DNA of 64,000 nt from Candidatus Niyogibacteria bacterium. GTDB taxonomy: Bacteria > Patescibacteriota > Minisyncoccia > HO2-45-28. The DNA lies in assembly GCA_016181935.1 (NCBI GenBank), contig JACOYI010000003.1, positions 35,741-99,740 of the forward strand, written 5' to 3'. Below are positions 14,360 to 63,998 of the stretch, piece by piece (the stretch's first letter is position 1; every line of letters begins with the position of its first letter). The notes beneath the pieces were generated by a model, which did not search any database, was not told where the DNA came from, and saw only the letters and a list, made by a program, of their open reading frames with translations. Both the position numbers and the translations under genes were made by a program.

Positions 14360-14553
14360 AATGGAAGGAGCGTTTTTAATTTTTTGAAATGTTGCGGAAA
14401 CGCTTTGAAAATGAAGAAGTATTGCGAGCGAAAATAGCGGTCGGAAAATCCTGACTGGAGCGAAGCGGAAGGAAGGAGGAACGGGAACCGCGTGAAGTTT
14501 TCGCGAGCAAGACGACTATCATTTTCAAGCGCTGGAGCATGTATTGAAAAAAA

Positions 14554-15450
14554 TTAAAAGCGCCCCTTCTTAAAGCCGGTTTTATGGAATAATCCGCCGC
14601 GGTTTTCGATCTTTCCCGCGAGTTCCAACCGCGTGAGCCGTCCCAGTAATTCCGAAATGGATGTCCGGACGGCGTCCGCAAGCATTTCGGCATTCTGCGG
14701 CGTTTCCAAACAACGGAGCAGATTGTTATCATTTTCGTCCATGATGTCAAGTGCGGGGCGGATTTTAACCTCCAATCCCAAGAGTTCATAGACATCATCG
14801 AGCGTCCGGATGAGCGCCGCCCCTTCTTTCAATAGTTGATTCGTTCCCTTTGAATTGATCGAGGTGATCTCGCCGGGGACCGCCCCTACGTCGCGGTTAA
14901 AATCCAGAGCGAAACGCGCGGTGATCAACGCCCCGCTTTTTTCCGGCGCCTCTATGACAATGGTCGCTTCGGCGAGGCCCGCGATGATGCGGTTTCGCTG
15001 GGGGAAGGTCCACGTCTCGGCTGGCATATCGGGTTCGAACTCGGAAACGATGGCGCCTCCGGTCTCCAAAATTTGTTCCGCTAAACGGCGGTTGGTCATC
15101 GGGACAATGTGATTCAACCCGGAACCGAGCACGGCGATGGTCGGCGATTTTCCTGCGAGCGCCCCCGTATGCGCCTCTGCGTCAATGCCGAGCGCCAAAC
15201 CGCTTACGACCGCAATGCCGGCATTGGATGCGTCGCGCGCAAGGTCGCGCGCGGTTTCGAGTCCGTAGCGCGTGGCTCTCCGTGTTCCGACGATCGCAAC
15301 GGAGGGCGCATGCGCGAGCACTTCCGCATTTCCGAGACAATACAAAATTTCGGGCGGTTCGGGAATGTGCCGTAAGCCGTCCGGAAAGCGTTCATCGGTT
15401 CGGGCGAGTTTTTGGATAGAGAATCGCACGTCCTTACTATTATATATCAA
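14554..15450 (-). CDS. dprA: DNA processing protein A (Smf family)
   Basis: HAPSVAIVGTRRATRYG Rossmann motif. The dprA-topA adjacency is conserved in many bacteria. Confidence 0.85.
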   Translation of the reverse strand: MIYNSKDVRFSIQKLARTDERFPDGLRHIPEPPEILYCLGNAEVLAHAPSVAIVGTRRATRYGLETARDLARDASNAGIAVVSGLALGIDAEAHTGALAGKSPTIAVLGSGLNHIVPMTNRRLAEQILETGGAIVSEFEPDMPAETWTFPQRNRIIAGLAEATIVIEAPEKSGALITARFALDFNRDVGAVPGEITSINSKGTNQLLKEGAALIRTLDDVYELLGLEVKIRPALDIMDENDNNLLRCLETPQNAEMLADAVRTSISELLGRLTRLELAGKIENRGGLFHKTGFKKGRF

Positions 15451-32489: not shown

Positions 32490-32645
32490 AACGGCTCCTT
32501 TTAATGTGCGGGTGCCTCTCGAGGCCGAGGCACGGCAAGCCCTTACAAAAGGCATAACGCCTTTTGCGACCCGTTCGTGAATGGAATGAACAGGAATTGA
32601 ACTATAAGTATTATATACTATCTAGTGTAAAAAGTCAAGTTTTTG

Positions 32646-32717
32646 TGCCCCCATGAGGAATCGAACCTCAATTTCAGCCTCCGCAGGGCTGCGCTCTATC
32701 CGTTGAGCTATGGGGAC
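32646..32717 (-). tRNA. tRNA-Arg(GCG), hand-folded
   Basis: Acceptor GTCCCCA/TGGGGGC with one G-U pair, D-arm GCTC-AACGGATA-GAGC, anticodon stem CAGCC/GGCTG with loop CTGCGGA, T-loop TTCGATT. Confidence 0.65.
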
Positions 32718-32735
32718 AATAATAATGAAGAGCGG

Positions 32736-32768
32736 GACGGTCCTATCCGTTGAACGACGAGGGCAACA
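32736..32768 (-). other. degenerate tRNA 5'-half-like fragment upstream of tRNA-Arg
   Basis: GCCCTCGTCGTTCAACGGATAGGACCG resembles the acceptor and D-arm of the adjacent tRNA. Confidence 0.4.
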
Positions 32769-32784
32769 GGAATTCCGAAATCCA

Positions 32785-32910
32785 TTTTAGAAGCCCCACA
32801 GGCGTTTTGCACGGCGTTTTTTGGTTATAATTTCTGTGGAACCAAAAAACAAAGTGCCGAGGACGGAGCTTGAATCTCGCCGGAAATTCAAGCGTATTCT
32901 AAAAGGGATT
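32785..32910 (+). repeat. ~135-nt structured repeat element, copy A (terminal stem plus two internal hairpins)
   Basis: P1 TAGAAG/CTTCTA, P2 TTTTTTGG/CCAAAAAA, P3 GCTTGAAT/ATTCAAGC. Conserved linkers are CCCCRCAGGCG and CAAAGYGCCGAGGACGGAGC. Homologous to copy B at 63558 to 63695. Confidence 0.7.
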
Positions 32911-32924
32911 TCGGGATTCGTGTT

Positions 32925-33524
32925 CTAGAAGCCGAGATATCGCCCGATGCCTTCGGCGAGCGATTCCTCGGTTTCCGTTTCTTTCAAGGTTTTTATCAAA
33001 ATGTTCCGTATCTCGATCGGATCGGCGTCGCCTAAGGGAATCGTAATGCGGGGCGAGGTCAATTTCTTGGAAATGATATCGAGCTCTTTGGTATGCGGCG
33101 GGTCGTAGCGGATCCAAAAGGATTCGAGCGATTCGTAGGAATGCAATTTTTCTCCGATCTGAACGCCGCGCGCCGTCACCGCGAATTTCACGATCTTGGG
33201 ACGCCGCGCTCCGTAAAGCGCGATCGTGAAGCCAGCCAAGACCGTTAAAATACCAAATAAAAGGTTTCGAATCAAGGCGGCGACAATAACAAGCGCCGCA
33301 ACGATGATGCCGACGGCCCAGTACCATTCGCGGGATTTGGGAACGAAATCGTATTCGGGCGCCGACCAGCTGACGAGCGGCGTTTTAATGTCCGGTTTCG
33401 GTTCGGGCGTTGCGGCGATTGGCGGCAGTCCGCCAGCTGGCGGAGGCTGCGGTTCCGGCAGTTTTTCTGCGGGCGCTTGTTGTCCGGCATCCGGTTCTTT
33501 GCGGCGGACCATATCCATATCCAT
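32925..33524 (-). CDS. membrane protein with Pro-rich N-terminal region, hypothetical
   Basis: Start MDMDMVRRKE lies just after a terminator. TM helix VGIIVAALVIVAALI. The ORF-track N-terminus was judged spurious. Confidence 0.5.
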   Translation of the reverse strand: MDMDMVRRKEPDAGQQAPAEKLPEPQPPPAGGLPPIAATPEPKPDIKTPLVSWSAPEYDFVPKSREWYWAVGIIVAALVIVAALIRNLLFGILTVLAGFTIALYGARRPKIVKFAVTARGVQIGEKLHSYESLESFWIRYDPPHTKELDIISKKLTSPRITIPLGDADPIEIRNILIKTLKETETEESLAEGIGRYLGF

Positions 33525-33550
33525 TTCTTTATTGTCGCGGTTTCGCCTCA

Positions 33551-33584
33551 AAATGAAAAGCCGTCCTGCTTTGAGTAGGACGGC
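33551..33584 (-). terminator. rho-independent terminator GCCGTCCT/AGGACGGC plus U-run (minus strand)
   Basis: Perfect 8-bp stem followed on the minus strand by TTTTCATTTT, after the stop of the 33602 to 33802 ORF. Confidence 0.65.
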
Positions 33585-33601
33585 CTCGCTATTTTGAACC
33601 T

Positions 33602-33802
33602 TTATTTTTTGAAACGCTCCGGCAGAATTCTGCCGAAAATTTTTTTGATTTTCATCCGGAGCCAGCGCGCATAGACGAAGTAGCCGGCAAGGATGGCAAT
33701 GCCCCACACGAGGAACGGAATGCCGGGCACCAGTGGCAGGATAAGTCCCGCAATCCCCAAAAGAACAAGAACTCCGCCGAGCGCGATCCAGAAGAGCCTC
33801 AT
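33602..33802 (-). CDS. small membrane protein (66 aa), hypothetical
   Basis: Two TM helices, GGAG RBS, terminator downstream. Confidence 0.5.
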   Translation of the reverse strand: MRLFWIALGGVLVLLGIAGLILPLVPGIPFLVWGIAILAGYFVYARWLRMKIKKIFGRILPERFKK

Positions 33803-35964: not shown

Positions 35965-36051
35965 GGAGGCGTGGCTGAGCGGTTGAAAGCGGCGCCGTGC
36001 TAAGGCGTTAAGGGGGAAACTCCTTCAGAGGTTCGAATCCTCTCGCCTCCG
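35965..36051 (+). tRNA. tRNA-Ser(GCU)
   Basis: Acceptor GGAGGCG/CGCCTCC, anticodon stem GCGCC/GGCGT (one G-U pair) with loop GTGCTAA, long variable arm, T-loop TTCGAAT. Flanked by the processing-stem-like inverted repeat CCCATAGC/GCTATGGG. Confidence 0.85.
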
Positions 36052-37893
36052 CTATGGGTTTTTAATACGCGCCCTGGGTTTTCGCCAAGATGCCGCCGAT
36101 GCTCGCAATGCGAGCTTTGGCGGGACAAGCCGTGCTAAGGCGTTAAGGGGGAAACTCCAGAGGTTCGAATCCTCTCGCCTCCGCAATCTTGGAATGTCTG
36201 CCTCGAAAGGCAGGCATTTCCGTTTATTCACGCGATATTTTTTAGGTTCGATTGCTATTGTGGTTGAAGGAAAACGATTTGCGATCATCGAATAAAAATC
36301 GAGCGGTTTTTTCAAGGAAATACTCAACTTTTCGTCTTTTAGGGTTAGGTTCGATTCAGAAAGCGACATAAAGACCGCCCGCTTCTGTTCCGGCGCGCCA
36401 TTTTCAAACCACATCCGTGCTGCAACGGCAAAATTGAAGGAGTTCTCCGCCCAATCGATCCATTCCTCAATCTTGCGACCGGTGTCTTGTTGGGCTTCTT
36501 CGAGTTGCTTCTTTTGAGCCAAAAGGGTTTTGCGTTGCGGCTCGTATTCCTCGAGCGTTAGGAGTTCGCCGCTGGCGTTTTTCGGCGATGTATAGAGTTG
36601 CGTCAAATTCTGTAATTCGGCAACAACGTCTTTATAGCGCTTCTGTTGGGAGTCGATGACCGCGTTTTGGTTTTTAACGGTCTCAACATTGTCTTTCGAT
36701 AGTTCCTCAAGCGCCCACTGGCTGAACTCTTGGGAAAGTTTGAATCCTTTGATCTCATTGTCAATGAGTTTCTCCAAAACTTCGGCGCGCATGAATTTCT
36801 GGGTGCACTTCTTATTCTTCTGCTTGGTGCAATGGTAATAAACGTAGTGGAGGATTGTCGGCTTTTTCATTTCTTCAATCCTCGTTTTGCATTGGGGACA
36901 AGCATCTTTGCTCTTGTAAGCAAATTTATATTTACACTTCGTGCAAATGAGTTGATGTTTTTCTTCTGCGGTTACCATCCCGCCGCACTCGCCGCATTCA
37001 ATCTTCCCCGTGTAGGAAAAATGGTGGTTGGTGTGCGATCTTGGCTTTCCTTTCCTGCCGAGCTTCACTTGGATACGGTCAAAGTCATCCTCGGTAATCA
37101 TGGGTGTATGCGCGCCTTTGACGAGATCGCGCTCACCTGTTTCTTCGTTCTTTACTCCAAAGTAGCCGTAGTAAAACGGCTCGGTGAGAATTTTATAAAT
37201 TGCGGAGATGGGAAGATGCCGACCGCCCTGCCGTTTTGTTTGCCGTGTTTTTAAACCCCATTTTACTATTTCTTTTTGAATCCTGCGTACTGAATATTCT
37301 TCGCTCAAGAAAAGTTGGAAGAGACGCTGCACGAGAGGGAAACGTTCGGGGTCAGAGATAATATTTCGTTCACCCTTTGGTTTATCAAGATTGTTGAGAT
37401 ATCCGATGGGTGCGATGCCGTTCCTCCATCCCTGAAGGACTTTTGTCCGGTGTCCACGTTTTACGCTTGCGATCATGTCATCGGAATACTTTTTTGCCAT
37501 GCCGAATTCTATTTGCAGGATGAACTTATCATCAGACGAATTGTAATAAGTTTTGAAAGGCGTGCGCACTTCATCAATGTGTCCTTCGTCCATCAAGGTG
37601 ATTACCCAGCCACCGTCTAAGGCGTTGCGGGCAATGCGGTTCGGCTGCCAGACAAGGAAGGCATTTATTTTGCCCTCCTCCATCATGCTCATGAGTTGAG
37701 CAAACACCGGCCTTCCCCGTTTGTGGGCGGATTTTTCCTCTCGGTAAGTGCCGAGGACTCTGAGGTTGTGTTTCTTTGCGTACTCCTTTAGTTCGCGCTC
37801 CTGCGAATCAATCGAAAGCACCTGCTTATCCTTGTCCTCGGTGGACTTCCGGCAGTAGATGACGTATTTAAGTTTCTCGTTTTGGGTTGTCAT
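36052..37893 (-). CDS. large serine recombinase (phage integrase/transposase type)
   Basis: N-terminal resolvase catalytic domain YCRKSTEDKDKQVLSIDSQ, recombinase domain, Cys4 zinc ribbon (CGECGG...CTKC...CPQC) and coiled coil. The C-terminal ~45 codons read through the tRNA-Ser fragment, so the exact stop is uncertain. Confidence 0.85.
   Translation of the reverse strand: MTTQNEKLKYVIYCRKSTEDKDKQVLSIDSQERELKEYAKKHNLRVLGTYREEKSAHKRGRPVFAQLMSMMEEGKINAFLVWQPNRIARNALDGGWVITLMDEGHIDEVRTPFKTYYNSSDDKFILQIEFGMAKKYSDDMIASVKRGHRTKVLQGWRNGIAPIGYLNNLDKPKGERNIISDPERFPLVQRLFQLFLSEEYSVRRIQKEIVKWGLKTRQTKRQGGRHLPISAIYKILTEPFYYGYFGVKNEETGERDLVKGAHTPMITEDDFDRIQVKLGRKGKPRSHTNHHFSYTGKIECGECGGMVTAEEKHQLICTKCKYKFAYKSKDACPQCKTRIEEMKKPTILHYVYYHCTKQKNKKCTQKFMRAEVLEKLIDNEIKGFKLSQEFSQWALEELSKDNVETVKNQNAVIDSQQKRYKDVVAELQNLTQLYTSPKNASGELLTLEEYEPQRKTLLAQKKQLEEAQQDTGRKIEEWIDWAENSFNFAVAARMWFENGAPEQKRAVFMSLSESNLTLKDEKLSISLKKPLDFYSMIANRFPSTTIAIEPKKYRVNKRKCLPFEADIPRLRRREDSNLWSFPLNALARLVPPKLALRASAASWRKPRARIKNP
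36130..36184 (+). pseudogene. tRNA-Ser(GCU) 3' partial copy (anticodon loop to 3' end, near-identical apart from a 3-nt deletion)
   Basis: CCGTGCTAAGGCGTTAAGGGGGAAACTCC-AGAGGTTCGAATCCTCTCGCCTCCGC lies about 78 bp downstream of the complete tRNA and inside the 3' end of the recombinase ORF. Confidence 0.75.
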
Positions 37894-40554: not shown

Positions 40555-41256
40555 ATGAATATAAACACGCTAGTCAAGAAGTTGCACATAATCAAAGATA
40601 AGGGTTTCATAAAAACTCACCGTGCTCACGATACTGGGATTGGTAAAACTCTGGAAGATTTGCTGGAAATAAAAGAAAATAATTTGCAACTCCCTGATGT
40701 CGGAAAGATTGAATTGAAGGCAAAAAGGATCGACTCGGGGAGCATGCTCACTGTTGCCACTAAATCACCCTTACCAAAAGGCGTGAATAGGATTTTATTT
40801 GAGAAGTATAAATATAGGGATAAAGAAGGAAAATATAATCTTCACTCTACCGTGTGCGGTTCGCGAACCAACAGACAAGGACTTAGGGTTGTTTTGAAAA
40901 ACGATAAGTTAATTTTGAAAAATACCTACAACGTTGAGGCATATTGGCCTCTTTCTATTTTCGATGATGTTTTAAAGAGCAAATCAAATAAGATATTGCT
41001 CATTTTTGCTGAAACAAAAGGCGAGAGAAAAACTCCAAGCGAAAAATTTCACTACAGCGAGGCCTATTTACTTTCGGGGCTTAATAGTAAAAAGTTCAAA
41101 TCTGCCATAGAAAAAGATAAACTAAAGGTTGATATTCGAATTGGGGTATATCGAAGCGGCAAATTCAAAGGACGCTATCACGATCATGGCACTGGATTTC
41201 GAATCAATAAAAAAGACTTCCTCCAACTTTTTGATCATTACAAAAAGCTCATTTAG
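40555..41256 (+). CDS. type II restriction endonuclease, MutH/MvaI/BcnI-like PD-(D/E)xK family
   Basis: LPDVGKIELKAKR is a PD...ELK catalytic motif as in MutH. LLIFAETKGERKTPSEKFHYSEAYLL and YHDHGTGFRI resemble conserved MvaI/BcnI blocks. Convergent with and overlapping the methyltransferase by 8 nt. Confidence 0.65.
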   Translation: MNINTLVKKLHIIKDKGFIKTHRAHDTGIGKTLEDLLEIKENNLQLPDVGKIELKAKRIDSGSMLTVATKSPLPKGVNRILFEKYKYRDKEGKYNLHSTVCGSRTNRQGLRVVLKNDKLILKNTYNVEAYWPLSIFDDVLKSKSNKILLIFAETKGERKTPSEKFHYSEAYLLSGLNSKKFKSAIEKDKLKVDIRIGVYRSGKFKGRYHDHGTGFRINKKDFLQLFDHYKKLI

Positions 41257-43114
41257 TTTTTCTCAGAACAACGATACTTTCTCTTGTCATCGTTTCTTCT
41301 AGCTCGCCGGCGATATTGGTGGGGGAATTTTTAATTGGCATTCTTTTGCCTGGTATATTGCGTACCACAATATTCTCACAATTGAACCCGATTTGCTCTG
41401 CGAGTTCGGCAATAATAAAATCGGTCGGTAGTCTTACTTGCTTAACTAAACGATTTCCGATAACGAGACAAAAATACTTATTTGGTTTTAATATCTGATG
41501 GGCTTTTTTAAGGCAATCATTTAGTCCGATATAAAAACTCAAAACATCTTTTGCTCTCTTGGGGTCTCGTTCGTCGATCTTTTTTAGAGAATCTTTGAGA
41601 TAATCTGACGCCAATGAATTTCTTAACTCAATGACAGGCTTACCGCCTAGCAACTTGTTGTCAACTCCGGAAGCTTCATTTGGATCATCAAACATATCAA
41701 TCCACTGTGAAGAAAGCCGTGAAAACTGACCGTAGGCGACAGTCGTTCTACTGTCTCCATAGGGTGGGGAGGTGATAATAAAATCAATGGATTCGTCTTT
41801 TATGCCGTTATCTTTTGAAGAATCTCCGTATATAATTTTTGCCCATGTGTTTCTATCAACGTCACGGTAATAACTCTCCATGCCTTTCATGTTGAGCTCC
41901 GTTCTTTTTTTAAATGTGGCTAAAACATCGGGGCTGTGATTTTCAAGATTTTCTTTTTTAATTCTCACAAGCTTAAATTCTCCGCTCTTTGTATTTGACA
42001 CTTTCCTGACAGTTTCACTAAAAGCAACCATGAAGAAATTTCGGATATTTTTACTGGAGATTTCCTGTATAGCTTTTTTTATTTTTGCCAACTCGATGAC
42101 TACTTTTTCTTTAAACCAAAATTCAACGTTATTAAATACCGGCTTCTTAATCTGATTGTTTTTAATCTCGCCGATTTTTTTTAGGAGTTTTAAATACTCC
42201 TTATTGAGAATCGCGGGGTCAATAGGGGTTGTTTTTGTTTTTGCAAGAAAGATGGCAAGTGGGTTTAAATCAATACCATGCGCATTTCGGCCTAACAGAC
42301 GACTCTCAATCAAGGCCGTGCCGGAGCCACAAAAGATGTCGCAAACCGTATCTCCCTTTTTGCTGTAAGTTAGTAAAAGTCGCCTTGCAACGTGAGGGAT
42401 AAACATTGCGGGGTATGTGTGAAAACCGTGAGTGTATGGTTTGGTATTAACTCTTTCAAAATCCCATGAGTAGTCGATCTGTCTTTGAAGTTTATGATCA
42501 GATACTTTTTCTTTCTCGGTTGGCTTTTCGAGATTTCTAATAATTCTTACAACAACACCGCGAACCTCTAACTCTTTTGTGTAAATTGGGAATAGAGTTG
42601 GATTTGCTGGTTGCAATCTGAAACGATCCTTTTCTCGATAAATCCGTTTTAGCGTTGCCTCGTTGTCATTAATAATCGCAACTACAGTTTGTCCGTTATC
42701 AGCGATGTTCTGCTGCCGAATGACAACAATATCTCCGTCATAGATTCCATCGTCTATCATGCTATTTCCTTGCACTCGTAGGGCATAATGATTGCCGAAC
42801 TTTCCAATGTCGTCTTTCGCAACTGTGATTGTTTCTGGAATTTCTATGGCCTCGATGGGCGTGCCGGCGGCAATCGTACCCAAAAGAGGAATTTTAATCG
42901 TTCTGCTGTTTTTTTCTGCCGACATCGCGCGCGGCTGGTTAACCTCGCGCTGTAAATATCCGGCTTCTTGCAGTCTCTTAACATGAAAATGCGCCGTAGA
43001 AACCGAAGCAAGTTTAAAGCGCCTCCGAATCTCCTCTAAGGATGGGGCGTACCTTTTCTTTGCGCTATATTGTTTTATGAATTCCAAAACTTCCTTTGGA
43101 CGCTTTGTTAACAT
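41249..43114 (-). CDS. LexA-like repressor (wHTH plus S24 autopeptidase) fused in-frame to an amino-DNA methyltransferase (motif I FCGSGT, motif IV SPPY)
   Basis: N-terminal ~205 aa: LTKRPKEVLEFI, HLKAL-like helix, IPLLGTIAAGTPIEA (Ala-Gly cleavage site), LRVQGNSMIDDGIYDGDIVV (Ser nucleophile), GQTVVAIINDNEATLKRIY (Lys), VVVRIIRN. The following ~420 aa carry HGFHTYPAMF...DIFCGSGTALIESRLLGRNAHGIDLNP and IDFIITSPPYG. The reading frame is continuous over 621 aa. Confidence 0.85.
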   Translation of the reverse strand: MLTKRPKEVLEFIKQYSAKKRYAPSLEEIRRRFKLASVSTAHFHVKRLQEAGYLQREVNQPRAMSAEKNSRTIKIPLLGTIAAGTPIEAIEIPETITVAKDDIGKFGNHYALRVQGNSMIDDGIYDGDIVVIRQQNIADNGQTVVAIINDNEATLKRIYREKDRFRLQPANPTLFPIYTKELEVRGVVVRIIRNLEKPTEKEKVSDHKLQRQIDYSWDFERVNTKPYTHGFHTYPAMFIPHVARRLLLTYSKKGDTVCDIFCGSGTALIESRLLGRNAHGIDLNPLAIFLAKTKTTPIDPAILNKEYLKLLKKIGEIKNNQIKKPVFNNVEFWFKEKVVIELAKIKKAIQEISSKNIRNFFMVAFSETVRKVSNTKSGEFKLVRIKKENLENHSPDVLATFKKRTELNMKGMESYYRDVDRNTWAKIIYGDSSKDNGIKDESIDFIITSPPYGDSRTTVAYGQFSRLSSQWIDMFDDPNEASGVDNKLLGGKPVIELRNSLASDYLKDSLKKIDERDPKRAKDVLSFYIGLNDCLKKAHQILKPNKYFCLVIGNRLVKQVRLPTDFIIAELAEQIGFNCENIVVRNIPGKRMPIKNSPTNIAGELEETMTRESIVVLRKTK

Positions 43115-43252
43115 GGCTGTGTATTGCTTTTTATCCCGCACTTAAAGTATAATAGAAAATAAATAGAAAGTCGAAAGTCGGGTTATCCCCAGCTTCATGT
43201 GATAAGTTCGATGGGGGTTGAAATATCCTAAAAATGTGATAAAAAATAAGAA

Positions 43253-48790: not shown

Positions 48791-48835
48791 CCCCAAGGGT
48801 AGTCCTTTTCTGACCCGCAGGACTACCCTTGGGGC
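48791..48835. repeat. REP-like palindromic element, copy 3
   Basis: CCCCAAGGGTAGTCC-TTTTCTGACCCGCA-GGACTACCCTTGGGG begins 5 nt after the stop of the 891-aa ORF. Confidence 0.8.
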
Positions 48836-54908: not shown

Positions 54909-55289
54909 ATGGCGAACGGAAAAAAGGTTTTGATCATTGACGACGACGAATTTTTACTGGACATGTACGCGGTCAAATTCCGCGAATCGGGTTTTGATGT
55001 TCAGGTGGCCTCATCCGGCGGCGATGCGGAGGCCGCGATAAAAAACGGTTTCTCGCCTGACGTGATCCTCTTGGATCTTGTGATGCCGGGCATGGACGGT
55101 TTTGATTTTTTGAAATCCATAAAGACCTTGAGACCCGCATTGCATGCCAAGGTCGTCATTCTTACGAATTTAGGGCAGAAAGAGGATATCGATAAAGGAT
55201 TAAAACTCGGCGCCGCCGATTACATCGTAAAAGCGCATCATACGCCGTCGGAGGTGGTCAATAAAGTCAGCGCGATGCTCTCGACATGA
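54909..55289 (+). CDS. single-domain response regulator (CheY/PilH-like receiver)
   Basis: KVLIIDDDE. Phospho-acceptor Asp in ILLDLVMPGMDG. Conserved Lys in YIVKA. Confidence 0.75.
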   Translation: MANGKKVLIIDDDEFLLDMYAVKFRESGFDVQVASSGGDAEAAIKNGFSPDVILLDLVMPGMDGFDFLKSIKTLRPALHAKVVILTNLGQKEDIDKGLKLGAADYIVKAHHTPSEVVNKVSAMLST

Positions 55290-56350
55290 ACGACCACAAA
55301 ACAAAACTCGACGCGCTCGCGATCCAGACCGCGTCTCAAGGCGCATCGGATTTGCATCTGTCCGTAGGCCGTCATCCGGCGCTCCGGATTGCGGGCGTTC
55401 TTTCGCCGCTTTCCTCGGAGCCGTTATTGACGCGCGAGGATACGGAAGGGATGGTGTTTTCCATTTTGACCGACGATCAAAAGGCGCGCCTTGCGCGGGA
55501 TCGGACCGTTGATTTTTCGTATGCGGTGGAAGACCGCGCCCGTTTCAGGGTCAACGCATTTTTTGAGCGCGGATTTGTTTCCGTGGCGTTCCGGCTGATC
55601 CCCGTCAAAATCCCGACGCTTGACGAGTTGAATCTGCCCCCGATCCTTGCGGATTTCGCCCGCCGCCCCCAGGGATTTTTTCTGGTGGTCGGCCCTACGG
55701 GACACGGAAAATCCACGACGCTTGCGTCCATGGTGGACGTCATCAATCACGAGCGTGCGGAGCATATTTTAACGATCGAGGATCCGATCGAATATATTTT
55801 TTCGGACGATAAATCCATTATCAATCAGCGCGAAGTGGGCACCGATGCCGCTGATTTTCCGTCGGCGCTCCGCTCGTTGTTCCGGGAGGACGTGAACGTC
55901 GCGATGATCGGGGAGATGCGCGATTCCGAAACGATCTCGACGGCCGTCACGGCGGCCGAAACCGGCCACCTGATCCTGTCGTCGCTTCACACCAACAGCG
56001 CCTCTCAAACGGTCCACCGCATCATTGATGCATTTCCGTCGGACCAGCAAACCCAGATCCGTTCCCAGCTGTCGAGCACGCTTCTCGGCGTTTTTTCACA
56101 GCGGTTATTGCCGAGGATCTCGGGCGGACGGGTCCCTGCGTATGAGATGCTTATTGCGAACACGGCCGTGCGCAACCTCATTCGGGAAAATAAAGTCCAT
56201 GAGATCGATCTGTTCATTGAGACGAGCTCCTCGGAAGGCATGATGAGTTTGAATCAATCGTTGGTCGAACTGGTGCGCAAGGGAGAGATCACGCTCGAGG
56301 CCGCGCGCGATTATTCATTGAATGTGAAGGGACTCGAACATCTATTATAA
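55286..56350 (+). CDS. pilT: twitching motility ATPase PilT
   Basis: Walker A VVGPTGHGKSTTLAS. AIRNLIRE motif. Confidence 0.9.
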   Translation: MNDHKTKLDALAIQTASQGASDLHLSVGRHPALRIAGVLSPLSSEPLLTREDTEGMVFSILTDDQKARLARDRTVDFSYAVEDRARFRVNAFFERGFVSVAFRLIPVKIPTLDELNLPPILADFARRPQGFFLVVGPTGHGKSTTLASMVDVINHERAEHILTIEDPIEYIFSDDKSIINQREVGTDAADFPSALRSLFREDVNVAMIGEMRDSETISTAVTAAETGHLILSSLHTNSASQTVHRIIDAFPSDQQTQIRSQLSSTLLGVFSQRLLPRISGGRVPAYEMLIANTAVRNLIRENKVHEIDLFIETSSSEGMMSLNQSLVELVRKGEITLEAARDYSLNVKGLEHLL

Positions 56351-56440
56351 TGAATCCTATGCATGCAAGTTTTGCCGATAGCGATTCTCGACACGCGGGA
56401 CTGCCCCTGCGAGGCATTCCCGCTCTGTCCTCGGCTCGCT

Positions 56441-56485
56441 CGTTTCGCTTAAACGCTACGCGTGATTATAAGCGAAACGCCGTGC
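56441..56485 (+). other. perfect 10-bp hairpin GTTTCGCTTA/TAAGCGAAAC with 15-nt loop in the pilT-pilC intergenic region
   Basis: The spacer is 188 bp long, much longer than other intergenic gaps in the operon. Confidence 0.4.
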
Positions 56486-56537
56486 CCGCTCGCCTGCGGA
56501 CGGTCTCGAATTCACTATCGGCAAATCTTGCGTAAAT

Positions 56538-57746
56538 ATGCTTTTCTACTACAAAGCCAAAACGCGCGAAGGGGAGGATAAATCCGGCTCGATCGAGGCG
56601 GCTACACAGGATTTAGCCGTTGCCGCGCTTCAACGACGGGAATTGATCATCGTGTCGCTCGAGGCGGCCGAAGAGCGCGGTTCGTGGCTTTGGCGCAATT
56701 TAGCCGCATTCGAGCGCGTCAAGGATCGCGACATTGTCATTCTTTCGCGCCAAATGGCAACGCTCTTTGGCGCAAAGGTGGCCGTGGTGGACGCGCTCCG
56801 GATCTTGGTGACCGAAACCACCAACGAACAGATACGCAAGGGGCTTACGGCGGTCGCGGATGATATTCAGGGCGGACTTCCCATTTCGCAGGCCATGGCC
56901 CGACAGCCCAAGATTTTCACCCCGTTTTATACGCAAATGGTGCGTTCGGGCGAGGAATCCGGAAAACTGGAGGACGTACTAAATTATCTGGCCGACTATT
57001 TGGAGCGTTCCTACGATCTTATCTCCAAAGCGCGCAATGCCCTGATCTATCCGTCCTTTGTGGTCGTGACGTTCGCGGTCGTGATCAGCATTATGCTGGT
57101 GGTGGTCGTTCCCCGCCTGTCCTCGATCCTTATTGAATCCGGCCAAGCCGTTCCTTTGTATACCCGCATCATCATCGGGTTATCCGATTTTTTGCGCGTA
57201 TTCGGTATTTTCATTATTTTGGGACTCGTGATCGCGGGCATTGTGGTGTGGCGGTATCGCGAAACTGCGCGGGGCCGTCGGGCGACCGCGCGGTTCCAGC
57301 TGAGCATCCCGATCGTGCGCGACCTGTATCGTCAGCTGTATCTCGCGCGGTTTGCCGATAATTTGCAAACGCTCTTATCGGGCGGCGTGCCGGTGGCGCG
57401 CTCGCTCGAAGTGGCGTCCGATGTGGTGGGGAATGAAGTTTATGCGTCCATTCTTCGCGAAACGCGCGATGCGGTCAGCGCCGGCTCCTCGATCTCCGAT
57501 GCGCTTGCGCGCTACGAGGATGTTCCGCCGCTCGTGTCCCAGATGATCAAGATCGGCGAGGAAACCGGAAAACTAGTGCCGATCCTGGAAACGCTTGCCA
57601 AGTTTTATAACCGCGAAGTCAACAACACGCTTGAGCGCATCGTCAGCTTGATCGAGCCAGCCCTGATCGTGGGCCTTGGCCTCGGTGTCGGCATCATCGT
57701 TGCCGCTATTTTGGTTCCGATCTACAACCTGTCTATTGGGATTTAA
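56538..57746 (+). CDS. pilC: type IV pilus inner-membrane platform protein PilC/GspF
   Basis: Two GspF repeats and three TM segments. Confidence 0.85.
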   Translation: MLFYYKAKTREGEDKSGSIEAATQDLAVAALQRRELIIVSLEAAEERGSWLWRNLAAFERVKDRDIVILSRQMATLFGAKVAVVDALRILVTETTNEQIRKGLTAVADDIQGGLPISQAMARQPKIFTPFYTQMVRSGEESGKLEDVLNYLADYLERSYDLISKARNALIYPSFVVVTFAVVISIMLVVVVPRLSSILIESGQAVPLYTRIIIGLSDFLRVFGIFIILGLVIAGIVVWRYRETARGRRATARFQLSIPIVRDLYRQLYLARFADNLQTLLSGGVPVARSLEVASDVVGNEVYASILRETRDAVSAGSSISDALARYEDVPPLVSQMIKIGEETGKLVPILETLAKFYNREVNNTLERIVSLIEPALIVGLGLGVGIIVAAILVPIYNLSIGI

Positions 57747-57750
57747 GAGT

Positions 57751-57829
57751 AGCCCCAAGGGTAGTCCTTTTCTGATTCCTAAGGACTACCCTTGGGGCTA
57801 TTTTCTGATTCCTAAGGACTACCCTTAAG
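57751..57829. repeat. REP-like palindromic element, copy 4, plus a tandem partial fifth copy
   Basis: AGCCCCAAGGGTAGTCC-TTTTCTGATTCCTA-AGGACTACCCTTGGGGCT followed by a loop-plus-right-arm repeat. Confidence 0.8.
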
Positions 57830-59246: not shown

Positions 59247-59942
59247 ATGAATCGAGGGTTTATCCAGCACTACAACGTCGAAATTTTCCGGCGCCTAAAG
59301 CGTATTCGACATTGTAGTGCTGGGTTTACGCTCCTCGAAATGGCGGTGACGGTTGGCGTTGCCGCGATGATCTCGAGTTTGATCCTTGCGAATTTTCCGC
59401 AATTTTCAAGGCGGCTTGAAATGTCGAGAACGGCGCAGGCCGTGGCGCTTTCGTTCCGCGAGGCGGAAGCCGCCGCGCTCGGTGTGCGAGAGTTCACGTT
59501 CAGCGGAGTCGGTTTTTTCCCCGCCTATGGTTTGCATTTTGAAAAACCATCGGCAATAAATGGCGATGGCCGGCAATTTTTTCTTTTCGCGGACCTTGAC
59601 GAGGATCGGCTTTATGATGGAACGAAGGATGATAATTTTGACGGCGAGCCCGATGAGCGCGCGGATATTTTTACGATCAGCGGCGCGCCAAAGATCGTCG
59701 ATCTCTGTTCCGGCAGAAAATCCCGCAGCAGTTCCGCCGGTTGCAGGCTTGACAGCTTGGATATCACGTTCGTCCGTCCCAATCCGGATGTGAAGATCAA
59801 ACGGAACAACGATCCGTTATCCGATTTTTCCGATGCGGAGATCGTCGTCCGGATTCCGACCGGAGAATGCCGCCGCATTACCATTTGGTCGACGGGACAA
59901 TTATCCATTGAGCCGATCGAAATACCATGCCAATTGGAATAA
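59247..59942 (+). CDS. minor pilin/pseudopilin with long leader (…RHCSAG-FTLLEM)
   Basis: Prepilin N-terminal motif. The leader coding region carries a 20-bp inverted repeat at 59265 to 59325. Confidence 0.65.
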   Translation: MNRGFIQHYNVEIFRRLKRIRHCSAGFTLLEMAVTVGVAAMISSLILANFPQFSRRLEMSRTAQAVALSFREAEAAALGVREFTFSGVGFFPAYGLHFEKPSAINGDGRQFFLFADLDEDRLYDGTKDDNFDGEPDERADIFTISGAPKIVDLCSGRKSRSSSAGCRLDSLDITFVRPNPDVKIKRNNDPLSDFSDAEIVVRIPTGECRRITIWSTGQLSIEPIEIPCQLE

Positions 59943-60497: not shown

Positions 60498-61094
60498 ATG
60501 AGAATGCATACCGCCGGATTCACCCAGCACTACAGCGTCGAAATATTTCGGTGCGCGAAGCGCATTCGACATTGTAGTGCTGGGTTCACGCTTCTTGAAA
60601 TGATCGCCGCGCTCGGCGTCTTCAGCGTCATCATCATTATTTTTTCCTCCACGTTTTTGAATCTGCTCAATGCCGAGCGCAAGGCGCAGATCGCCTCGAG
60701 CGTGCAGGATAATCTGCGTTTTGCTATCGAGGTGATGTCAAAGGAGATCCGGACGGGAACCCAATATCAAGTTCCGCCTCAGCCGACGAATACCGCAATA
60801 ACCTTCGTGAACGCGAATGATGAATCGATTACCTATCGCGTGAGCGGTCCGGATATTGCGAATAATCCATGCAGCGATGAGAAGCCCTGTATCGTTAAAA
60901 GCGTGAACGGTGGCGATTTTTTGCCGCTCACCTCCGATCAGATCGCAATCGATGACCTGTTGTTTTTTGTGGGCGGAATTCAGCCGCGCATTCAGATCAT
61001 CATTCGCGCGCGCGCAACCGTTCAAAATGTCGAAACGCAATTGAATCTTCAGACGACCGTTTCCCAGCGCAACATAGTGCGGCCAACACCATGA
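60498..61094 (+). CDS. minor pilin/pseudopilin with long leader (…RHCSAG-FTLLEM), paralogous 5' module
   Basis: The same ~85-nt 5' module as the 59247 gene, with an inverted repeat at 60523 to 60584. Confidence 0.65.
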   Translation: MRMHTAGFTQHYSVEIFRCAKRIRHCSAGFTLLEMIAALGVFSVIIIIFSSTFLNLLNAERKAQIASSVQDNLRFAIEVMSKEIRTGTQYQVPPQPTNTAITFVNANDESITYRVSGPDIANNPCSDEKPCIVKSVNGGDFLPLTSDQIAIDDLLFFVGGIQPRIQIIIRARATVQNVETQLNLQTTVSQRNIVRPTP

Positions 61095-61513: not shown

Positions 61514-63541
<2,028 letters not shown>

Positions 63542-63557
63542 CCATGAACCGGAAAAT

Positions 63558-63695
63558 CCTTTTCGGAGGCCCCGCAGGCGCTTTGCAAGGTGTTTTTTGG
63601 CTACAATTGCGCGAAGCGAGCCAAAAAACAAAGCGCCGAGGACGGAGCATGAGCGTCGCCGGACGCTCATGCGTACTCCGAAAAGGATTTTTAAG
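63558..63695 (+). repeat. ~135-nt structured repeat element, copy B (upstream of gatC)
   Basis: P1 TCGGAG/CTCCGA, P2 TTTTTTGG/CCAAAAAA with a different loop, P3 GCATGAGCG/CGCTCATGC. Same conserved linkers as copy A. Confidence 0.7.
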
Positions 63696-63713
63696 GTTCA
63701 TGGCATCATTCTT

Positions 63714-63998
63714 ATGATCACACGCGAAGATGTAAAAAAAATGGCCGACCTCGCGCGCATTGAATTGGATGCGAGCGAGGGCGCCGCGCTCGCAGGCGAT
63801 CTCGAGCGGATTTTGGATTACATTGAAAAATTGAAAGAAGTGAACACAAAGGGCGTGGAGGGTGCGGCGACGACCGCGCTCGTCAATGAATTCCGACTCG
63901 ATGCCGCGCGGTCATTCGAAAACAGTGCGGCGCTCTTGGATGCCGCTCCGCATACGGAGCATGGGCTTGTATCGGTCAAAAAAATCATCGAAAAATGA
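63714..63998 (+). CDS. gatC: Asp-tRNA(Asn)/Glu-tRNA(Gln) amidotransferase subunit C
   Basis: MITREDVKKMADLARIELDASE...LERILDYIEKL is a typical GatC. The ORF-track N-terminal extension reads through the repeat element. Confidence 0.8.
   Translation: MITREDVKKMADLARIELDASEGAALAGDLERILDYIEKLKEVNTKGVEGAATTALVNEFRLDAARSFENSAALLDAAPHTEHGLVSVKKIIEK

Follow-up and report, generated by a model that had tools for sequence, protein, structure and literature searches.

Structured, probably mobile MITE-like repeats dispersed between genes of Candidatus Niyogibacteria

RESULTS

A structured element lies in three intergenic gaps of the window

The window, the whole 64-kb stretch of Candidatus Niyogibacteria (CPR/Patescibacteria) DNA that was analysed, carries three copies of a structured element, A, B and C (Table 1). 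GatC, LigA and RecG encoded in the window are 100% identical to proteins recorded for Candidatus Niyogibacteria bacterium. One neighbor of copy A is a hypothetical gene encoding 260 aa (32925-33707, minus strand), whose stop codon borders the element; on the other side lie a pseudo-tRNA fragment and tRNA-Arg(gcg) (32645-32717, minus strand). Copy B occupies the entire spacer between the stop codon of ligA (63539-63541) and the ATG of gatC (63714), and copy C is flanked by genes with Pfam matches to T2SSE ATPase (55286-56350, plus strand) and T2SSF (56538-57746, plus strand). The element is non-coding; the only open reading frame across it, at 56350-56535, has no Pfam match.

An earlier note on this DNA had reported two similar structured elements, A and B, and both are present, with 84% column identity in alignment (nhmmer E about 1e-47 to 1e-49). 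The length of about 135 nt given there fits the inner part but not the full extent: the closing helix continues to 23-28 bp, and the element is ~160 nt long (range, 147-177 nt in six copies). The count of two also fell short, since a third, diverged copy, C, lies on the minus strand and is 46-55% identical to the other copies.

Table 1. Copies of the element, their settings, the parts of copy B and the candidate target-site duplications in the window
Feature	Position	Strand	Remarks
Copy A	32765-32924	+	Covariance model 168 bits; between a hypothetical gene and pseudo-tRNA/tRNA-Arg, antisense
Copy A arms	32765-32792 / 32897-32924	+	Inverted repeat, 89% complementary
Copy B	63541-63706	+	Covariance model 178 bits; between ligA and gatC, sense
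Copy C	56361-56537	-	Diverged; nhmmer E=2e-4; covariance model 51 bits, E about 1e-11; between T2SSE and T2SSF, antisense
L002 copy (JACOVJ01)			Between ligA and gatC, antisense
L004 copy (JACOVJ01)			Between infC and rpmI, antisense
L012 copy (CP066691.1)	L012 9723-9869		Between a hypothetical gene and ligA, sense
B P1 5' arm	63544-63568	+	Partner 63676-63702
B junction J1/2, GCCCCGCA	63569-63576	+	C residues pair with GG..GG of J2/3
B P2 arm	63577-63637	+	P2a, 5'-side bulge, P2b, variable apical part
B junction J2/3, GAGGACGGA	63638-63646	+	Most conserved block, 0.90 mean pairwise identity
B P3 hairpin	63647-63672	+	Conserved loop UCGCYGGA
B J3/1	63673-63675	+	Conserved GUA
B P1 3' arm	63676-63702	+	Directly after J3/1 GUA
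B direct repeat	CATGA 63543-63547 / TATGA 63713-63717	+	Candidate target-site duplication; second repeat holds the gatC start codon
C direct repeat	TATGC 56358-56362 / TATGC 56537-56541	+	Candidate target-site duplication; second repeat holds the T2SSF start codon

The surroundings of copy A show two further features. A tRNA-like 5' fragment (GCCC..GTTCAACGGATAGGAC; 32725-32760, minus strand) just upstream of tRNA-Arg(gcg) is also found in the related genome JACOVJ01 (L020 1559-1590) and may be a degraded tRNA duplicate. Downstream of tRNA-Arg lies a near-consensus sigma-70 promoter, TTGACT-17-TATAAT (32638-32610, minus strand), which shows that this CPR genome uses canonical promoters.

The family is narrowly and patchily distributed

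The covariance-model search proposed in the earlier note was carried out and, like a profile search, found copy C; variation among the copies is compensatory rather than random. The model was built from four copies and then used to align all six. A filter-free scan of the 64-kb window returned no copy beyond A, B and C, the remaining low scorers being plain hairpins, and about 240 kb of related DNA, likewise scanned with filters off, gave no additional copy. When 185,579 species genomes were scanned for an exact two-block pattern, two true matches (L002 and L004, both in a further Niyogibacteria MAG, JACOVJ01, assembly GCA_016177385.1) and five chance matches in Streptomyces were obtained; the exact pattern had 0 matches in viral contigs and only two chance matches in metagenomes, both in GC-rich DNA (L008 and L009). 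The family is therefore rare, or its blocks are too variable for exact patterns. Retrieval of the loci around LigA and RecG homologues added one copy, L012; it comes from CP066691.1 (assembly GCA_016432485.1), a complete genome of 837 kb with a LigA 68% identical to that of the window. With three copies inside the window and three outside it, the family is known from six copies at five loci in three Candidatus Niyogibacteria genomes and, because the ~240 kb of other related DNA is empty, its distribution is narrow and patchy.

Copy B is identical in an independent Logan assembly (L018), and in two Logan assemblies the ligA-gatC element is oriented as in the window. One Logan contig (L019) stops within copy B, at the palindromic loop of P3, where such a break is a usual de Bruijn assembly artefact. 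A candidate seventh copy at L004 4069-4131 (21 bits) proved to be a plain terminator-like hairpin. It is a version, CCCCGAGGGGAGTCCTT..., of a GC-rich hairpin, CCCCAAGGGTAGTCCT/AGGACTACCCTTGGGG, that recurs at gene ends in the window (48791-48834 and 57744-57809) and is terminator-like or REP-like.

Compensatory changes maintain a three-way junction

The element consists of a closing helix of 23-28 bp, formed by terminal inverted repeats (P1), and a three-way junction with two internal hairpin arms (P2 and P3). The arms of the terminal inverted repeats are 23-32 nt long and 78-89% complementary, and the termini of the element read GGGAATC...GATTCCC. Both strands of copies A and B fold with much greater stability than dinucleotide-shuffled controls (plus strand, z = -3.3 for A and -7.8 for B; minus strand, -5.3 for A and -8.0 for B). 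Of 310 pair cells in the six-copy alignment, 96.8% hold standard pairs, and both sides have changed in 33 of 52 pairs across the six copies and three genomes; none of 500 shuffles matched any of five measures, and in a control in which the 3' partners were slid by 1-3 columns, pairing fell to 32-54%. The six-copy alignment was fitted to the model; an unfitted MAFFT/RNAalifold alignment of four copies already has 18 of 52 pairs compensated. For a repeat, this is unusually clean compensatory evolution. The data strongly support the view, put forward in the earlier note, that selection acts on single-stranded secondary structure and that the element is not a passive repeat.

Some details of the helices differ from those first proposed. 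P1 of copy A had been given as TAGAAG/CTTCTA; the helix exists, but its inner segment is TAGAA/TTCTA, of 5 bp, and the next pair is unformed (3' side ATTCTA). The P2 stem, described as identical in A and B, has one compensated pair (U-A versus C-G) and two G.U pairs in A, so that compensation was rightly assigned to it and identity was not. The compensatory changes in P3 and the conserved single-stranded blocks in A and B are as described. In copy B, P2a is GGCGCUUU/AAAGCGCC and P2b is GUUUUUUGGC/GCCAAAAAAC; the 5' bulge reads GCAAGGU in B and GCANGGY across copies. The apex of P2 in B is variable and comprises UAnAAU and a small hairpin.

Conservation is concentrated in the unpaired parts. 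Mean pairwise identity is 0.82-0.90 in the unpaired junctions and the P3 loop, 0.56-0.65 in the helices and 0.3-0.4 in the flanks; within the element, the lowest value, 0.56, belongs to the terminal inverted repeats. The J1/2 consensus is GCCCCRCA, and pair 33-112 between J1/2 and J2/3 covaries, being CG in four copies and UA in two (C and L012). The alignment also has a CGCNGG motif in both J1/2 and the P3 loop. All six copies are structurally intact. These observations show purifying selection on the fold as well as on the unpaired bases of the junctions and loop. A search for pseudoknots among the P3 loop, the P2 bulge and J1/2 found no consistent covariation. A guide-like pairing of the P2 loop of copy B (GGCUACAA) with 8 nt at the ligA stop (TTGTAGCC) was treated as chance; copy C has a 7-nt AU palindrome match of guide-like appearance, and A, L002 and L004 have nothing similar.

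Strongly conserved junctions and a conserved P3 loop next to covarying helices, together with covariation even in the two short junction pairs, speak for a family of functional structured RNA genes encoded by the plus strand, such as trans-acting ncRNAs, protein-binding scaffolds or small self-cleaving ribozymes, possibly spread via an RNA intermediate in a SINE- or retrozyme-like manner. On all the evidence we consider this explanation unlikely. The UAnAAU motif of the P2 apex is missing in the L012 copy, and the Rfam check suggested in the earlier note returned no matching family: at the gathering threshold of Rfam 15, the whole window yields tRNAs only, and a relaxed cutoff of E<10, applied to both strands of copies A, B, C and L012, brings up nothing but unrelated miRNA-type hairpin noise. 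The classes without a match include hammerhead, twister, twister-sister, pistol, hatchet and HDV-like ribozymes as well as riboswitches and T-box elements.

The plus strand appears to be the form under selection

Among the cells that are not Watson-Crick pairs, the plus strand has 10 G.U against 3 A.C (about p=0.05), and RNA folding energy (MFE) favors the plus over the minus strand in six of six copies, whether these are sense or antisense to host genes (about p=0.03). In the four antisense copies, the mRNA-sense strand has 7 A.C mismatches versus 2 G.U, so selection for the fold at the level of host mRNA is not favored. Numbers as small as 10:3 and 6/6 suggest, weakly but consistently, that selection sees the plus strand of the element itself, be it RNA or single-stranded DNA. 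The same two biases, being independent of the direction of host transcription, also count in favor of a plus-strand functional RNA.

Orientation and context argue against a regulatory leader

All six copies lie between co-directional genes and occupy the stop-to-start gap, and the flanking genes are unrelated housekeeping genes that are otherwise closely spaced or overlap. Relative to these genes, four of the six (A, C, L002 and L004) are antisense, and B and L012 are sense. Scans found no sigma-70-type promoter or intrinsic terminator at copies A, B and C (0 terminator-like sites). This weighs against an independently expressed RNA, as do the lack of spare DNA in the stop-to-start gaps and the antisense position of four of six copies with respect to the only evident transcription. 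In the earlier note, a small ncRNA or a ribozyme had been listed as an option; of this, the conserved junction bases and the weak plus-strand bias hold up, whereas a promoter, a terminator and an Rfam match are missing. An internal promoter built on UAnAAU, which resembles a -10 element, was rejected: the sole -35-like sequence, TTGCA, is 13 nt away, the scans reported none, and the motif is missing in L012.

Copy B does lie upstream of gatC, as the earlier note had observed, and its sense orientation directly before the gene would suit a cis-regulatory leader (a riboswitch or a T-box-like or ribosomal-leader-like element) of gatC or of other downstream genes. Orientation and context effectively refute this explanation, which we regard as extremely improbable. 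The orthologous ligA-gatC copy of JACOVJ01 is inverted; other copies precede, or are antisense to, tRNA, T2SSF, rpmI and ligA, whose functions are unrelated; ligA and gatC overlap without a leader in most relatives; and no Rfam family matches. The opposite ligA-gatC orientations in two genomes also raised the possibility of an invertible promoter (inverton), which was dismissed in that there is no promoter within the element.

That orientation relative to genes is irrelevant would likewise be compatible with an element acting as DNA, either a protein-binding or cruciform site of the kind proposed for REP/BIME, with a nucleoid protein, gyrase or a recombinase as its ligand, or a recombination site that, like integron attC, is used as folded single-stranded DNA. 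The near-perfect Watson-Crick pairing (290 of 310 cells), the strong folding of both strands and the recurrence of CGCNGG in J1/2 and the P3 loop point the same way. We nevertheless judge a DNA-level element improbable: ordinary double-stranded DNA sites need no three covarying helices; the size and the GTAG/CGTC-type signature of REP are lacking; the neighbors are housekeeping genes, not cassettes, and no integrase is adjacent; and a weak plus-strand asymmetry is unexpected for a symmetric cruciform.

Filled and empty sites point to insertion

The ligA-gatC site is filled in the window and in JACOVJ01, in opposite orientations, and has no element in seven other loci (L010, L011, L014, L017, L023, L024 and L025), where the two genes form an ATGA overlap in five cases and have an 8-nt spacer in two. 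The T2SSE-T2SSF site is filled only in the window, relatives having -4 to 8 nt there, and upstream of tRNA-Arg, where the window has copy A, JACOVJ01 has no element (L020 1537-1602).

Direct repeats of 4-7 bp, variable in length and containing the downstream ATG, flank four of the six copies: those of B and C are listed in Table 1, L002 has TTATGAT on both flanks, and L004 is flanked by CATG. No flanking direct repeat is visible at copies A and L012. These repeats take in start or stop codons, which selection would preserve regardless. Deletion of the element together with one repeat restores an ancestral-looking ATGA-type junction. Since the survival of both genes after insertion into an ancestral ATGA overlap needs at least ATGA to be duplicated, an insertion that generates a duplication is implied by these junctions, in all probability, at least for L002. 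Variable-length repeats would also suit target-primed reverse transcription and, with it, a functional RNA that spreads via an RNA intermediate; the window has no reverse transcriptase.

Copies B and L002 have sublineage features in common and occupy one locus in opposite orientations, which points to one ancestral insertion that was later flipped by recombination between its own inverted arms or to two independent insertions into the same ATGA target. The unpaired spacer of B is located toward gatC, the arrangement seen in the antisense copies, and its position mildly favors inversion in situ.

A search of the window for transposases, reverse transcriptases, HUH genes, Y1 transposases and RAYT found none, and the retrieved loci of relatives also lack a transposase. 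The sole recombinase in the window is a large serine recombinase with Resolvase and Recombinase domains (36052-37893, minus strand), which belongs to an unrelated island and abuts tRNA-Ser(gct) (35965-36052). Its region extends to about 44600 and includes an HTH protein, an MvaI/BcnI-type restriction endonuclease (40555-41256), a DUF4145 protein and a LexA/S24 and N6_N4 methylase fusion (41249-43141); it looks like an integrated island with a restriction-modification system.

Copies fall into old sublineages

LigA of the window and of JACOVJ01 are 77% identical in protein and 73% in DNA, with 53% identity at four-fold degenerate sites. Between these genomes, the elements are 77% (B versus L002) and 78% (A versus L004) identical, and within the window A and B are 70% identical. 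Because identity between genomes (77-78%) exceeds both that of A and B within one genome (70%) and that of four-fold sites (53%), the family comprises two or more old sublineages, which purifying selection has maintained and which have not been homogenized. Concerted evolution or gene conversion among copies was rejected on the same grounds, within-genome pairs being less alike than cross-genome pairs. Copies in one genome are just 46-70% identical, and no recent burst is apparent from these values. Retention of the element sequence well above the synonymous-site level is also what a functional RNA would predict.

Other hairpin families share the same spacers

A second, unrelated family of long-hairpin repeats, about 205 nt in length, is represented in the window (14364-14569, between dprA and topA; z=-6.9) and by two copies in CP066691.1 (L012 9478-9716 and 12026-12222), with which the window copy has 71% column identity. 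In CP066691.1, the spacer between ligA and gatC is filled by one of these copies, which has AGATAA direct repeats on its flanks. A third palindromic element (L022 12032-12219), with a terminal inverted repeat CAAACGAAACGGCGTTT.../...AAACGCCGCTTCGTTTG and internal hairpins, also fills a ligA-gatC spacer, that of another relative. Since three different element families use this spacer, the junction is a hotspot. Directly after the L012 copy lies an inverted repeat, AATGAATCCCGTTAGAAAG.../...CTTTCTAACGGGATGAATT (L012 9868-9975), so that the 530-bp spacer upstream of L012 ligA holds three distinct palindromic elements in a row. Elsewhere in the window, a palindrome of 21-29 nt, ACCCAGCACTACARCGTCGAA/TTCGACATTGTAGTGCTGGGT, occurs twice (59254-59333 and 60522-60585), within two ORFs downstream of pilus genes.

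DISCUSSION

A probable MITE-like family in a streamlined genome

We favor the interpretation that the element is a non-autonomous, dispersed and apparently mobile intergenic repeat family of Candidatus Niyogibacteria, structured and MITE-like, and regard this as probable. The interpretation follows from terminal inverted repeats, dispersal, occurrence in both orientations, filled and empty sites, direct repeats, location in operon spacers and the presence of other hairpin families there. Like MITEs, the element is non-coding and shorter than 400 bp, ends in terminal inverted repeats and has dispersed copies with filled and empty orthologous sites. A structured MITE-like repeat had been among the options listed in the earlier note, and it is the one that fits best, the unrelated neighbors included. 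With no Rfam counterpart, the family is best filed as a new one among structured miniature mobile repeats.

Copies of such an element would arrive by transposition in trans, as the 4-7 bp flanking repeats that rebuild an ATGA-type junction suggest. The folded plus single strand would be under selection, most likely as the form recognized during mobilization, and once inserted, the element could simply be transcribed along with the host operon and form a long hairpin there, in the manner of bcr1, ERIC and Correia.

Several observations do not sit easily with a MITE. Its termini are the least conserved and its junctions the most conserved parts, the reverse of a classical transposase-recognized MITE and typical of functional RNA. 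That all six copies are intact suggests constraint in situ rather than selfish decay. Neither a transposase nor a cognate IS was found in the window or in the retrieved loci, and direct repeats are lacking at A and L012. The conservation pattern, together with the plus-strand bias, leaves some room for a mobile RNA, a ribozyme or folded single-stranded DNA. In the mobile-RNA version, the three-way-junction core would be functional, and a CPR-specific enzyme would recognize the plus-strand transcript or single strand and might also cleave or reverse-transcribe it. This would account for junctions being conserved above termini, for the G.U and energy bias of the plus strand, for duplications of variable length and for the excess of antisense copies. 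We think it unlikely to be correct; if it were, the family would count among SINE- or retrozyme-like elements of bacteria or would represent a new class of small ribozyme or protein-binding RNA.

Taken as a MITE-like family, the repeats are of interest because they show active small mobile elements persisting in CPR genomes, which are very small and dense and in which stop and start codons often overlap, and because hairpins of ~160 nt are tolerated within essential operons of these streamlined genomes. They offer a test case of how insertions between translationally coupled genes are neutralized, and they could serve as a strain-level marker of Niyogibacteria genome dynamics and as a lead to the mobilizing enzyme. 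They also call for caution in annotation: a strongly covarying structure in front of a gene is not, on that ground alone, a riboswitch.

Comparison with known systems

REP sequences are GC-rich palindromes of 20-40 nt, and REPINs are simple hairpins; they are mobilized by RAYT transposases without target duplication. REP, BIME and REPIN resemble the present family as structured, multicopy extragenic palindromes whose hairpins evolve by compensation, and in their case the folded single strand is recognized by an enzyme. The unit described here differs in its length of ~160 nt and its three-way junction, and the window has no RAYT gene. The ncRNA and ribozyme classes of Rfam 15 likewise combine multi-helix junctions, conserved unpaired nucleotides and covarying stems, yet none of these families matches.

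Closer in size are ERIC/IRU of enterobacteria and Correia/NEMIS of Neisseria, imperfect palindromes of 100-160 bp found in either orientation in transcribed intergenic regions of operons, where they form long hairpins within mRNA; ERIC has an orientation-dependent effect on the stability of flanking mRNA, and Correia hairpins are RNase III substrates (PMC2229807). They share with the present family their size, their location in operon spacers and their occurrence in either orientation, and they are functional analogues for co-transcribed hairpins. They differ in having conserved termini and TA duplications and in forming simple long hairpins, which lack the three-way junction and its conserved unpaired positions.

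Among described elements, bcr1 of the Bacillus cereus group (Okstad 2004, Klevan 2007) comes nearest. It is about 155 bp long, with a closing stem and two stem-loops in a 'cruciform-like' fold, has 5-bp direct repeats, is distributed in a non-conserved way between related strains and shows compensatory changes that keep the structure; its copies differ in stability, and some have lost the structure (PMC3184786). The fixed 5-bp duplication of bcr1 contrasts with the 4-7 bp repeats seen here, which are missing at two copies, and its copies without structure contrast with six of six intact ones. The host phylum of bcr1 is unrelated to the CPR host, and membership in bcr1 is implausible. The likeness is architectural only and extends to size, fold, patchy sites, short direct repeats and compensation.
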